A model generated the notes under the pieces. It was given only the letters and a program-made list of their open reading frames with translations, made no database searches and was not told where the DNA came from. DNA of 64,000 bases from a virus: UHGV virus genome UHGV-0112899; one strand, 5' to 3'. Shown in pieces: positions 8,303-11,939 of this stretch (positions within the stretch are counted from its first letter, which is position 1; each line of letters begins with the position of its first letter). Made by a program: the position numbers and the translations under genes.

Positions 8303-8632
8303 ATGAGTTACAGCAGGCTCGACGATCGATGCATTGAAGACGATGTGCTGCGCGCACTATTCCATCAGGAGATGATCAAGCGGGTATCGGAGTATCACTC
8401 CGATAATTTCCAGTACACGATAAAAATTGATGAGGTTTATCGCTCAGACCTGGCGGCCTATCGCGCCTATGGCAACGCTGATTTGCGCTGGGTATTTCGC
8501 GTGCTGGTGGGCCATGAGTCAGAAATGGAAGAAATGCCGGTCGGGACAACGTTAACTCTTCCTGACGCAGCATGGCTAAGAAACAAGATTCGCGATTACG
8601 CTGGCTCGGCACCGGAGATAGAAAATGCCTGA
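8303..8632 (+). CDS. hypothetical protein
   Basis: 109-aa ORF with GAGGA RBS; 8-nt overlap with the next gene. Confidence 0.5.
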   Translation: MSYSRLDDRCIEDDVLRALFHQEMIKRVSEYHSDNFQYTIKIDEVYRSDLAAYRAYGNADLRWVFRVLVGHESEMEEMPVGTTLTLPDAAWLRNKIRDYAGSAPEIENA

Positions 8633-9821
8633 CTTCCTGAAAAATCAGGACGGGCGATATATCACTGACGGCCTGTCCTCTAAGGATTTCACACGCGTAT
8701 TTGAACTCATCAGGAAAGAGCAAAACCGCAAACGCCGCCAGGCGCACAGGACACTCACGCCGGGCAGGCTTAGGAATAAATCAGCTGAAGACATTCTTAA
8801 GCTGGGGAAAAAGAAAGGCGGCACGTTCTTTACGCGTGACGATCTGAAAGGCTTCGAAAAGCTGCGAAGCAAAGCACGCGAAAAATATGACAGCAAGACG
8901 GCTGGCATCACATACGCACAACTGGTAGCGTCCAGCCAGGCTATCGATATTAAGCGAGCAAATAACGCCGTAGACGACGGTTCTGGTATCAAAAGAGCTA
9001 CGCCCGTATCTCTTCGTCACAATGTGATTAATATCCGCGTGGAAGCGTCCGATATATCCGTTCACCAGCACCACATTGTCCGGGTACGTTTTGAAGAATG
9101 GGATCAGATGGTCGATGACATCGCAGAAGACGATAAATCAGCCCTGAAAGTCACAAAATCACTGTGTGCCGGGCGAGTGTCTTTCGACTGTGACTGCGGT
9201 CGCCATCAATACTGGTATCGCTACATCGCCACTGCGGGTAACTTTGCCCTGGCCCCGCCAAAAGAATACGCCTATCCAAAAGTTCGCAACCCTAAGCTGC
9301 AAGGCGTCGCCTGTAAACATGTGATCCACTCAATGACACGACTACAGTCTGCCAGTTGGCAGATGAGTATTGCTCGTGCGCTACAAAAGGCTGCAACGCA
9401 AATTGCATTTGGTGACGATCGCCGCCGTACAACCAAACACTTCTCAAAAGAAGACGAGAAGGAGTTTAATCGCAATCGTAGCAGTAAAACGAACGTTGAA
9501 GCCGCCAAACGCGAATGGAGGCTCTATCAGAAGCGCCAGGCAGCTTTAAGTACAAAACTGGCGAAGGACAACGGCAAGATCGACAAGCTACGTGACCAAC
9601 TGACCAGGGCCAGAAAGTTGTCAGACGCACAGAAAAAACGAGCGGCAGCAAAAGAAGCGGCCTTGCAACGTGAGAAACAGAAAAACAAGGAGCTTCAGCA
9701 ACGCCTTGCCGATCAGTTCGCACTGAAGAAGCAGGCGTTCATTGATGCGCTGGTCATGGCAGGAACGTCACCTGGGCAAGCTGAAAAAATGTTTATGGAG
9801 TACGTGAAGAAAGGTTCTTGA
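8625..9821 (+). CDS. SWIM-like zinc-finger protein with Lys-rich coiled-coil C-terminus
   Basis: CDC...CKH motif (CxC-x39-CxH) followed by a basic coiled-coil tail. Confidence 0.45.
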   Translation: MPDFLKNQDGRYITDGLSSKDFTRVFELIRKEQNRKRRQAHRTLTPGRLRNKSAEDILKLGKKKGGTFFTRDDLKGFEKLRSKAREKYDSKTAGITYAQLVASSQAIDIKRANNAVDDGSGIKRATPVSLRHNVINIRVEASDISVHQHHIVRVRFEEWDQMVDDIAEDDKSALKVTKSLCAGRVSFDCDCGRHQYWYRYIATAGNFALAPPKEYAYPKVRNPKLQGVACKHVIHSMTRLQSASWQMSIARALQKAATQIAFGDDRRRTTKHFSKEDEKEFNRNRSSKTNVEAAKREWRLYQKRQAALSTKLAKDNGKIDKLRDQLTRARKLSDAQKKRAAAKEAALQREKQKNKELQQRLADQFALKKQAFIDALVMAGTSPGQAEKMFMEYVKKGS

Positions 9822-9855
9822 TTGACAACAAAGGCGGTCATACAGACCGCCGAAC

Positions 9856-10215
9856 TCATACACCAACCAGGCTTTCAAGAGGAATGCCAAACTGGGAATG
9901 TAAACGACGAATCATAGGTAACGTTAAATTTCGTGTTCCATTTAGCACTTCGTAAACACGATTTGACTTACCAATCGCCGGTTCCAGATCCTTCACGGTC
10001 AGCCCTTGCTGTTCCATACGGAATTTAATGGCCTCAATAGGTGATGGTGGCTCAATTGGGTAATGTTTTTTCTCGTACTCCTCAATGAGAAGACACATGA
10101 CCTCAAAGAAATCACCTTCCGGGGTGTTCATTTCCGGTTCGTTATCGAACATCGGTTCGACCGCACGCAGTGCGGCCTCATAATCTTGTTCTGTACGGAT
10201 AGGTTTAATGTTCAT
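9856..10215 (-). CDS. HigA-type (XRE HTH) antitoxin-like protein, orphan copy
   Basis: C-terminal LEPAIGKSNRVYEVLNGTRNLTLPMIRRLHSQFGIP resembles E. coli K-12 HigA-type HTH; no adjacent cognate toxin. Confidence 0.5.
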   Translation of the reverse strand: MNIKPIRTEQDYEAALRAVEPMFDNEPEMNTPEGDFFEVMCLLIEEYEKKHYPIEPPSPIEAIKFRMEQQGLTVKDLEPAIGKSNRVYEVLNGTRNLTLPMIRRLHSQFGIPLESLVGV

Positions 10216-10271
10216 TAATTCCAAAGGAAAGCCCACTTGTTAAGTGGGCTTTTTGTATGTGTTTTACTATA

Positions 10272-10610
10272 TCAGGCTGCTTTTTTATTCAGGTTCCGCT
10301 GAGAAATAAATTTTTCAGCAGTATTGATACGACTTAACTCTTCCTGAACGCGCATATCATTTTCGACTTCCCACAGGTCTACTGCGGTCTGAAGATTAAT
10401 CCAAAAATCTACAGAAGTATCGAATGCTTTTGCCAGGCGATATGCCATATCCATCGTTAGCTTACGATTATTATTAACAAGAGCACTTACGGTGTTACGA
10501 TGAACATGAAGTATTTCTGCTAACTCGTTGATCTTAAGCTCTAACGGCTCCAGGTATTCGTACAGCAGGATATCACCTACAGTCGTCGGTTTTCTGGTTG
10601 CCTGTTTCAT
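10272..10610 (-). CDS. higA: HigA antitoxin (XRE HTH)
   Basis: VGDILLYEYLEPLELKINELAEILHVHRNTVSALVNN...FWINLQ HTH signature; downstream of higB. Confidence 0.7.
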   Translation of the reverse strand: MKQATRKPTTVGDILLYEYLEPLELKINELAEILHVHRNTVSALVNNNRKLTMDMAYRLAKAFDTSVDFWINLQTAVDLWEVENDMRVQEELSRINTAEKFISQRNLNKKAA

Positions 10611-10681
10611 TTTTTGCCCTTACTAGCGTGCGTATTAAGTGGACTCTGGTCAGTACCCGGTCCATCCGCCGGGTATTTGTT

Positions 10682-10984
10682 TTAGTATTTGTGAGGGTCG
10701 AGATACAAGTCCTCGGCCTTTCCGTTAACCCACTTAAAAATTAACCTGTATTGCTTATTCACCCTTATTGATGAATAGCCGTTTAGCTTCCCTGACAATT
10801 CCTCATACCGATTACCTGGTGGTGATCTCAAGTCCTTCCAAGTAGTTGCAGCATTGATAATATCCAGCTTCCGCAACAATGTAATCTGAATATCAGAAGG
10901 TATCTTTTTGTGTGGTATTGAAAATTCAAAAAAATCATCAAGCCACTCATCCCTGAAATTCTTTATGTTAATCTTTTTGCTCAT
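10682..10984 (-). CDS. higB: HigB toxin (RelE/ParE superfamily)
   Basis: 100 aa; ...PPGNRYEELSGKLNGYSSIRVNKQYRLIFKW... signature; toxin-first gene order. Confidence 0.7.
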   Translation of the reverse strand: MSKKINIKNFRDEWLDDFFEFSIPHKKIPSDIQITLLRKLDIINAATTWKDLRSPPGNRYEELSGKLNGYSSIRVNKQYRLIFKWVNGKAEDLYLDPHKY

Positions 10985-11147
10985 CGATCATTTTATCCTC
11001 CATGATTATTAATGAATGTCATAATGATAGCGCACCGTTGCACCGTGCGCAAGTGCATATTGTAACAATTCCCCTCCTCCATCCAAAATCACAATCTCCC
11101 GAAAATCTTCCTTTCGATACCTGATAAATCGACCTTTGAGGACGCTT

Positions 11148-11939
11148 ATGGGCCGTTTTGATGAATGGCTTGCTGATGATGCAAGCCTGATGAGAAAGGG
11201 AACAGAACATGACAGCACGCAGAGAGAAGAGACAACGACGGTTGAAGCGAATGAAGGAAGCACAACGGAAAATGGGAATGTCAGTGCAGGGCCATTCAGT
11301 ATTCTGGAAGAGCACGCCGCCACCCAATCTAATAGCCATGATAATTGGCCTGATAATGCTGGTGACTCTGTTACGGAAGTGATTGAACCTGACATCGCTC
11401 CCCTACCGGCATCGCTCGCTAACAGAGAACCAAACCAGCAGCTTAAAACCCGATATAACGGACATAAAGCGTTCAACGACCAGATCCGCGCCGATTGGAT
11501 GCTCATTATTGAATCAAGCCCTGACGCGTTCGAGGCGCTTTTATACCGCCCGGCTGATGGCACCTATGGCGTCGTAAACGATGAAACAGGTGAAGAGTCT
11601 TTCACGCAACTGGACAACAACCAGCGTGAGCTTACCTATCTGGAACCGGAAATCGTATACGTCCTGGATAACCCGGACGGAAGGGATTCGTTTCATGCCA
11701 TTGATGCCGATGGAGAACAGGATGGTCTTGCTGATGAAGTGCTAATCCTGCGTATTGCTGCAAACAACGTACCTGTTGGTTCAATCCTGGAATGGAACGA
11801 AGAAATGGCGAATGGCCTCGCCCGCCGCTGGTGGTACGTGCATCGAATCTTCAGCTACGGAACACAACACGTCGGCTCCCTTTATTACTGCATCCCGGCC
11901 AGGAACTTTGATACCACTCAAAACGGAGTGATCGAATGA
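11148..11939 (+). CDS. hypothetical protein (possibly tail/baseplate-associated)
   Basis: ATG 11148 after GAGGA; ATGA coupling to the next gene. Confidence 0.4.
   Translation: MGRFDEWLADDASLMRKGTEHDSTQREETTTVEANEGSTTENGNVSAGPFSILEEHAATQSNSHDNWPDNAGDSVTEVIEPDIAPLPASLANREPNQQLKTRYNGHKAFNDQIRADWMLIIESSPDAFEALLYRPADGTYGVVNDETGEESFTQLDNNQRELTYLEPEIVYVLDNPDGRDSFHAIDADGEQDGLADEVLILRIAANNVPVGSILEWNEEMANGLARRWWYVHRIFSYGTQHVGSLYYCIPARNFDTTQNGVIE

Follow-up and report, generated by a model that had tools for sequence, protein, structure and literature searches.

The closest described relatives of the locus studied here are the HigB/HigA toxin-antitoxin (TA) pair of E. coli K-12 (YgjN/YgjM, PF09907; structures 5IFG and 6KML, and 5YCL from Shigella) and the TA pairs of the Rts1/Proteus HigBA, Pseudomonas GraTA and E. 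coli YbaQ type, in which the gene of a PF05015 toxin precedes that of a TIGR02607 antitoxin. The defence system PD-lambda-2 of Vassallo et al. (2022; PMC9519451) also includes a HigB-like protein, alongside a fusion of a HigA-like domain with an ImmA/IrrE peptidase and one further protein. Antitoxins that lack a toxin of their own are known from anti-addiction, an example of which is the chromosomal CcdA of Erwinia chrysanthemi versus CcdB of the F plasmid (PMC7354431), and the logic of anti-addiction, orphan antitoxins and plasmid competition has been reviewed (PMC7354431, PMC12548467). Here we analysed a 64-kb stretch of the virus genome UHGV-0112899 (the whole stretch is hereafter called the window), which is a D6-like (P1-family) phage-plasmid with 93% identity to Escherichia phage D6. 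Behind a higB-higA pair it carries a third gene, denoted HTH3, which is best explained as the antitoxin of an earlier TA module whose toxin gene has been replaced.

The TA locus of D6-like elements has been treated in print simply as a higA-higB post-segregational killing system (PMC6799933), and our literature search returned no earlier description of the HTH3 orphan in these elements, only mentions of 'higA-higB' post-segregational killing. The window matched 118 plasmid records, each of ~90 kb, from E. coli, Salmonella and Shigella, and ~28 kb of the element lies beyond the window. According to the annotation of D6, the three genes form an insert in reverse orientation between homologues of the P1 tail genes 25 and 7.

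A higB-higA pair followed by an orphan antitoxin gene

An open reading frame (ORF) check confirmed three minus-strand ORFs at positions 9856-10984, in the order higB, higA and HTH3. HigB scored 119 bits against PF05015 (gathering cut-off 27), contained the YRLIF string, had the GraT-type toxin 6F8S_B as its closest solved structure (E 7e-14), and was also a member of phrog_3066, 'toxin of TA system'. HigA scored 102.5 bits against TIGR02607 (cut-off 47.7), and its closest solved structure was E. coli YbaQ (2EBY, E 1e-53), to which it showed ~80% identity. By these matches the 112-aa HigA is the cognate antitoxin of the PF05015 HigB. A sequence-only reading of the window had recognised a RelE/ParE-like toxin with the YRLIF motif, a standard toxin-first pair, and behind it a second helix-turn-helix (HTH) protein of the K-12 HigA type without a cognate toxin; the profile searches it had proposed for the HigB and HigA families placed both proteins above their cut-offs, and the rest of this description also held.

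Two start codons are available to HTH3, a GTG at 10236 (126 aa) and an ATG at 10215 (119 aa). Phage D6 and RefSeq plasmids are annotated with the 119-aa form, and with this start the distance to higA is exactly the 56 nt that the sequence-only reading had given. The protein matched the K-12 and Shigella HigA chains 5IFG_B and 5YCL_A over residues 6-112 (phmmer, E 2e-8). Its AlphaFold model (pLDDT 93) consists of two helices at 9-24 and 32-51, followed by a five-helix Xre-type HTH domain at 59-117, and the only full-length matches of the model in the PDB were HigA chains of E. coli and Shigella (6KML_B and 5YCL_A, 29-32% identity). The N-terminal helical hairpin is presumably the toxin-binding part, as in the K-12 HigBA structure (5IFG). 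HTH3 belongs to a very large set of standalone proteins of ~119 aa, is labelled 'transcriptional regulator' in PHROGs, and matched the PADLOC model PD-Lambda-2_B with an E value of 6.7e-43, only at positions 1-119 of the 402 in the profile.

No PF09907 toxin was detectable in the window (tblastn, E <= 1e-5), so HTH3 is truly an orphan there; its upstream neighbour at 56 nt is the 112-aa HigA, not a PF09907 toxin gene. The hairpin in the spacer between the two genes has a poor U-tract on the minus strand, and its earlier description as a weak terminator is therefore fair. A putative extended -10-like element, TGATATAGT, was read at 10274-10266, where it overlaps the stop codon of higA.

HTH3 homologues are usually paired with a PF09907 toxin

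On the Kluyvera chromosome, in Salmonella lambdoid prophages and in Xenorhabdus, the gene of a 100-aa PF09907 HigB lies 4-5 nt upstream of the HTH3 homologue. In a census of fetched loci, a PF09907 toxin stood immediately upstream in 68 of 80 species genomes and in 44 of 64 viral contigs, and 112 of 143 loci were paired in this way overall. Three further loci had partial toxins, a few had C-terminal toxin remnants, and beside ~10-14% of the homologues in bacterial genomes the toxin was decayed or missing. The sole other recurrent upstream neighbour was the PF05015 higBA of D6-like elements (16 contigs). Judged from these neighbourhoods, the canonical partner of HTH3 is the PF09907 HigB toxin. 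The canonical partner toxins matched PADLOC PD-Lambda-2_A with E values of 1e-40 to 1e-42, and the PD-Lambda-2 profile models here simply recognise the K-12-type HigBA family.

Several loci showed other arrangements. In Salmonella lambdoid prophages (L010-L014, e.g., L010 3693-4360 and 7511-8090), a pair of PF09907 higB and an HTH3-like gene lies between the minor tail and tape-measure genes, with other TA genes nearby, either a PF05015 HigB with an HTH protein or YafO; TA morons in tail-gene clusters thus recur in unrelated temperate phages. The genome of Pasteurellaceae bacterium Macca contained at least eight pairs of a PF09907 toxin and an HTH3-like protein on several contigs (L117, L119-L125), all equally identical to the query, which represents either an unusual multi-copy case or a repeat borne by a mobile element. 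In the viral contig L057 (3001-3356), which is of the paired type, the PF09907 toxin gene is intact and the antitoxin is apparently frameshifted; this may reflect an error in the sequence or a toxin that has lost its antitoxin.

Replacement of the toxin gene at the tail-gene site

Seven D6-like contigs of IMG/VR (L016-L021 and L056) carry a PF09907 toxin and HTH3 between the same tail genes as in the window. In L016 and L056 the flank on the gene 7 side matches window positions 13697-11086 at 99% (blastn) and then diverges, and their HTH3 proteins show 100% identity to that of the window. In the full set of seven contigs this identity is 99-100%, and the HTH3 DNA differs at 10-20 positions, mostly synonymous. 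Homology between the window and the paired loci breaks at ~11086 and resumes ~12 nt before the ATG of HTH3 (alignments A2 and A3), and these last ~12 nt of the higA-HTH3 spacer (TGGAATTAATG) are similar to the 3' end of the toxin gene and the ribosome-binding site in canonical pairs. Plasmids show the same two states. WP_021551809.1, to which the HTH3 protein of the window is identical, accompanies toxin WP_021551810.1 as its antitoxin in NZ_LT906557.1 and NZ_CP069886.1 and is an orphan in pS143-4, and all three plasmids are typed rep_cluster_1704.

Since sister plasmids carry a PF09907 toxin with the same HTH3 at the same site, the comparison shows that the old toxin gene was replaced in the lineage of the window. 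From the breakpoints in the alignments, ~380 bp containing the old promoter and toxin gene were exchanged for a PF05015 higB-higA cassette of ~870 bp, and the exchange left the old antitoxin gene and its ribosome-binding site intact. By the same comparison, HTH3 is the antitoxin that remained when a K-12-type higBA module was displaced. The ancestral module consisted of a 100-aa PF09907 HigB, a gap of 4-6 nt and the 119-aa HTH3 between tail genes 25 and 7, and was autoregulated through GTCCCA-N3-TGGGAC palindromes in its promoter. The sister loci carry the palindromes TCCCAgcaTGGGA and GTCCCAtatTGGGAC upstream of the toxin gene, both of a kind typical for HigA operators. The HTH3-type operator palindrome TCCCA-N3-TGGGA had no exact match in the 64-kb window, and matches with two mismatches were at chance level (3 observed versus 1.6 expected). 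Because the cognate palindromes are absent from the window, the present role of HTH3 cannot be the autoregulation of its own promoter.

The incoming cassette is not uniform among D6-like plasmids. Two alleles of higB differ at 11 of 100 residues (89% amino acid identity, 23 nt; dN/dS 0.21). HigA is 99-100% identical (0-1 amino acid differences) in every D6-like locus examined, with higA DNA 0-5 nt apart, and the HTH3 DNA beside this near-invariant higA differs at 10-29 nt. With higB two-allelic, higA near-invariant and HTH3 variable, the cassette is a recombination mosaic.

Distribution of the two plasmid types and selection on HTH3

Among 5426 complete E. coli genomes, HTH3 DNA was found in 95, exclusively on ~90-kb plasmids and in one copy each. 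The sister-type PF09907 toxin occurred in 19 genomes and the PF05015 higBA cassette in 76, both on plasmids only. The two numbers add up to the 95 genomes with HTH3 (19 + 76 = 95), in agreement with a single site that holds one or the other cargo. Full-length copies accounted for 44 of the 95; thus ~25 of the 76 plasmids with HTH3 in the orphan context keep an intact gene. In the cut copies the 3' half is overwritten by a different allele of a downstream gene, and such a copy carries a pseudogene flag in RefSeq. The PHROGs family phrog_10398 (66 positions) matches HTH3 residues 1-66, the N-terminal part that remains in the truncated copies of most D6-like plasmids, and it is apparently a database 'family' built from pseudogene fragments. 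The truncated fragment would keep the N-terminal helical hairpin, and residual activity is possible.

The intact orphan copies had a mean nonsynonymous divergence (dN) of 0.011 and a mean synonymous divergence (dS) of 0.20, and the paired copies had means of 0.0017 and 0.18, respectively. The dN/dS of intact orphan copies was about 0.05-0.14; copies that had diverged to dS values of 0.1-0.4 had a dN/dS of only 0.02-0.10, and within orphan-only clades it was 0.06-0.10. Changes private to orphans comprised 7 nonsynonymous and ~15 synonymous ones, where ~77% would be nonsynonymous under neutrality (binomial P = 8e-6). These values indicate that the intact orphan HTH3 copies are under purifying selection, which seems somewhat relaxed relative to the paired copies.

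Possible targets and proposed role of HTH3

HTH3 is an orphan antitoxin for which matching toxins exist elsewhere in the host species, on other elements. The first possible target is the toxin of the sister plasmids described above, whose antitoxin is 99-100% identical to HTH3. The second is a PF09907 pair located on the chromosome in 148 of the 5426 E. coli genomes, many of them STEC-type strains, with a toxin 89% identical to that of the sister plasmids and an antitoxin 94% identical to HTH3. In strain O103:H2 12009 this pair lies in a lambdoid prophage, near dicB and divergent repressor-type regulator genes (the prophage immunity region). The HigB of K-12 is distant, and the sister-plasmid toxin matched it only at E 2.4e-7. 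Since the same antitoxin is paired with its toxin in sister plasmids, the nearest toxins that HTH3 could neutralise are those of competing sister plasmids. We infer neutralisation from the pairing of toxin WP_021551810.1 with the identical protein, WP_021551809.1, in one operon of the sister plasmids.

We therefore propose, with moderate confidence, that HTH3 is a retained antitoxin acting in trans, which would give its carrier cross-immunity of the anti-addiction or anti-abortive-infection kind. After the swap, the new PF05015 pair would serve as the addiction (post-segregational killing) or abortive-infection module of the element itself, and HTH3 would be transcribed from the higBA promoter by read-through of the weak hairpin. 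The N-terminal helical hairpin of HTH3 would bind PF09907-type HigB toxins produced by other elements in the same cell, such as sister D6-like plasmids of the same replicon cluster or lambdoid prophages. The carrier would in this way be immune to killing or growth arrest by a sister plasmid or prophage while imposing its own TA pair, and HTH3 may also repress the higBA promoters of those other elements.

A broader proposal, which we make only tentatively, is that D6-like plasmids of the rep_cluster enact the TA arms race of plasmid-competition theory, in that those with a swapped toxin and the old antitoxin displace their sisters and maybe disarm prophage higBA as well. If so, the orphan lineage would be immune to the post-segregational killing of its ancestors and sisters, and it would addict cells to a toxin that the sisters cannot neutralise; the same orphan might disarm related higBA modules of lambdoid prophages during infection. 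The sequence-only reading had put HTH3 forward as an anti-defence candidate against host TA systems. That role is plausible, and the chromosomal prophage pairs fit it, but it is not the most direct reading, since the sister plasmids are nearer; the truncation of two thirds of the orphan-context copies weighs against a strongly selected function. What the comparisons favour first is a swapped toxin with a retained antitoxin, and competition among phage-plasmids; host prophage TA modules come second as a possible target.

Several observations weigh against a present role of HTH3 as a trans-acting antitoxin, and part of them would be expected if the gene were a decaying relic of toxin replacement, harmless without its toxin, without present function and in the course of being lost. 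The gene is truncated in 51 of the 76 orphan-context plasmids, at nt 182 (in one at nt 106), and of the IMG/VR orphans, L049 has an internal stop and L058 is disrupted, which together argue that HTH3 is dispensable. The dN of orphan copies is ~6-fold above that of paired copies at similar dS, an enrichment of nonsynonymous changes that points to relaxed selection. In a neighbour-joining tree the orphan and paired alleles are intermixed, so recombination occurs between the two contexts and part of the low dN/dS may have been inherited from paired copies. HTH3 has also lost its native promoter and operators, is preceded by a hairpin and is left with a Shine-Dalgarno sequence that is weaker (GGAAT in place of GGAGT). 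No genome contained both plasmid types (one place per genome), so we infer the encounters between them. Decayed or missing toxins beside homologues in bacterial genomes make orphanhood by decay a common outcome. However, intact orphans are constrained even inside orphan-only clades, and the excess of synonymous over nonsynonymous private changes is not what a gene without function would show. The truncations share the breakpoint at nt 182 and probably go back to one or two events with clonal spread rather than to continuous decay, and the swap preserved the start codon and ribosome-binding site of HTH3 exactly. We thus regard a relic as the main rival, possible but less likely, and retention of HTH3 as a trans-acting antitoxin as the better account.

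The intact Xre-type HTH domain, the PHROGs label and transcription in the same direction as higBA would also suit a protein co-opted solely for DNA binding, regulating genes of the phage-plasmid or the host, or adding to the control of higBA, with no toxin to neutralise. Such a role is unlikely: the operator search described above covered the window of an element that is ~28 kb longer and found no exact site and near matches at chance, and higBA persists without a full HTH3 in most plasmids. The persistence of higBA in the 51 plasmids with a cut HTH3 also speaks against HigB, HigA and HTH3 forming one tripartite TA system, as might be supposed from three adjacent genes on the same strand that are probably co-transcribed. 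The trio is confined to D6-like elements, outside of which HTH3 has another canonical partner, and HTH3 is neither a SecB-like chaperone nor another known third component, which makes a tripartite system the least credible of the readings considered, and a highly improbable one. The matches of HTH3 to PD-Lambda-2_B and of its canonical partner toxins to PD-Lambda-2_A raise a further idea, namely that HTH3 counters PD-lambda-2-type systems by mimicking the N-terminal domain of B and either titrating the HigB-like A or occupying operators. PD-lambda-2 is a defence system of E. coli (ECOR42) in which A neutralises the toxic B (PMC9519451), and sequestering A should thus lead to death of the cell, not to its rescue. 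Over the shared domain HTH3 has only 48-59% identity to the ~400-aa fusions of an HTH domain with Peptidase_M78, while far closer targets exist in the modules whose antitoxins are 94-100% identical, and we consider this idea very unlikely. Neutralisation of PF09907 toxins by a retained antitoxin accordingly remains our preferred reading of HTH3.

Neighbouring genes and regulatory features

The features of the variable site are listed in Table 1. The consensus promoter scan gave nothing above threshold for higB and nothing convincing for HTH3, so the statements on promoters rest on sequence read by eye. In the region upstream of the cassette, the candidate elements read in this way are TTGCGC-17 nt-TATCAT and the inverted repeat GCGCAC-N9-GTGCGC.

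Table 1 Coordinates of the HTH3 locus and its borders in the window
Feature	Position	Strand	Basis
P1 gene 25 homologue, tail gene, right border of variable site	8625..9821	+	D6 orf74 'similar to P1 gene 25'
GC-rich hairpin GGCGGTC-N5-GACCGCC between convergent HTH3 and gene 25 homologue	9833..9851	.	terminator scan; fold -14.8 kcal/mol, z = -3.1
HTH3, orphan 119-aa K-12-type HigA antitoxin	9856..10215	-	protein identical to WP_021551809.1
higA-HTH3 spacer, 56 nt, with hairpin 10226-10254	10216..10271	-	fold ~ -15 kcal/mol, then CCUUUGG
higA, 112 aa, TIGR02607 antidote_HigA, YbaQ-like	10272..10610	-	NCBIfam E 7.9e-30
higB-higA spacer, 71 nt, with hairpin at 10652-10677	10611..10681	-	terminator scan, fold
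higB, 100-aa RelE-fold toxin, PF05015 HigB-like_toxin (Rts1/GraT type)	10682..10984	-	Pfam E 1.2e-34, profile 1-91 of 91
Upstream region of higBA cassette, expected to hold higB promoter	10985..11085	-	sequence read by eye
P1 gene 7 homologue, tail gene, left border of variable site, divergent from higB	11136..11939	+	D6 orf69 'similar to P1 gene 7'

Downstream of HTH3, the GC-rich hairpin is followed by the convergent tail gene; this hairpin is likely a terminator and is kept in all architectures (alignments A1 and A3). The hairpin between higB and higA scores as a terminator for the plus strand only, i.e., antisense to the TA genes. The hairpin of the higA-HTH3 spacer likewise scores as an intrinsic terminator on the plus strand, and both could halt read-through from the convergent tail gene 25 into the module.

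In many D6-like plasmids a gene of 242 aa (D6 orf73; L001 4353-5081) lies downstream of HTH3 behind the terminator hairpin; it is lacking in the window between 9822 and 9855. Its product has predicted transmembrane helices and a coiled-coil region and belongs to phrog_8191, and the alleles of D6, P31_YH1 and pO157_154 are extremely divergent. The presence or absence of orf73 is independent of the toxin swap, and one of its alleles is the sequence that overwrote the 3' half of HTH3. The gene looks like a fast-evolving moron, possibly with a role in exclusion or defence. As a missing partner of HTH3, orf73 was rejected: its sole family match is phrog_8191, it sits behind the terminator hairpin, and it comes, goes and is allelically replaced independently of HTH3, besides being absent from the window.

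A second HigA-family gene, seen upstream in pS143-4, was absent from the window, and ARAGORN detected no tRNA genes there; D6-like plasmids have been reported to carry four tRNAs (PMC6799933), which presumably lie in the part of the element beyond it. On the host side, chromosomal ybaQ, the gene of the close relative of the window HigA, occurs in ~4,830 of the 5,426 complete E. coli genomes, and a RelE/ParE-type toxin gene lies just upstream of it in only ~1,260 of these. The remaining copies, including those of K-12-like and O157:H7 strains, are host-side orphan antitoxins. The product of an orphan ybaQ might blunt the PF05015 HigB of the plasmid, a mirror image of the HTH3 case.

Comparison with known systems

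Each of the three proteins is an ordinary representative of a known family, and neither orphan antitoxins nor anti-addiction are new as concepts. The novelty lies in a well-resolved phage-plasmid case in which paired, orphan and truncated states exist in nature, and not in a new mechanism. Orphan antitoxins are common in annotations and can rarely be traced to a specific toxin, and the history of HTH3 is directly readable. D6-like plasmids thus offer a natural system in which retained antitoxins could be tested for a part in the competition of incompatible phage-plasmids or in the escape from prophage TA modules.

HTH3 shares the two-domain antitoxin architecture of the K-12 HigA, and its homologues share with K-12 HigBA the toxin-first operon with a PF09907 toxin and the promoter palindromes. 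It differs from K-12 HigA in sequence (~30% identity) and length (119 versus 138 aa), and the window lacks both the toxin and the autoregulated promoter. The first pair of the window has the gene order, PF05015 toxin and TIGR02607 antitoxin of the Rts1/GraTA type; compared with that type, its higB-higA spacer is unusually long and contains a hairpin, and the pair is a moron inside a phage tail-gene cluster.

The likeness to PD-lambda-2 lies in its A protein, a PF09907-type HigB, and in the N-terminal domain of B, which is homologous to HTH3. True fusions of the PD-lambda-2 B type are 399-403 aa long and carry PF06114. PADLOC gave no match for the HigB of the window, its PD-Lambda-2_A models matching only the canonical toxins of other loci, and no match to PD-Lambda-2_C among the three window proteins or D6 orf73. 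Component C is a protein related to an antitoxin of phage P4. Membership of the window in PD-lambda-2 was therefore rejected, as it has the HigA-like domain only, without A, the Peptidase_M78 (ImmA/IrrE) domain or C. PADLOC-style matches to PD-Lambda-2_A and PD-Lambda-2_B can thus merely mark ordinary K-12-type higBA pairs or their remnants.

In toxin-antitoxin-chaperone (TAC) modules the third gene encodes a SecB-like chaperone, whereas HTH3 is an HTH antitoxin by sequence and fold. Phages are also known to counter host defences with antitoxin-like proteins, such as T4 Dmd against RnlA/LsoA and orphan antitoxin-like enzymes against DarTG1 (PMC11825919). In these cases a phage protein neutralises a toxin resident in the host, which is conceivable for HTH3 as well. 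However, they concern lytic phages and were shown experimentally, whereas HTH3 is known from sequence and belongs to a temperate phage-plasmid whose closest targets are sister plasmids. A further parallel is with anti-addiction modules, which like HTH3 consist of an antitoxin without a toxin, the matching toxin being found on other mobile elements of the host species. Unlike the chromosomal cases, HTH3 is carried by a phage-plasmid and was born of a toxin-cassette swap, and its neutralising activity is deduced from its paired relatives. Also unlike anti-addiction modules, the swap would leave the element both immune to its old toxin and armed with a new TA pair.

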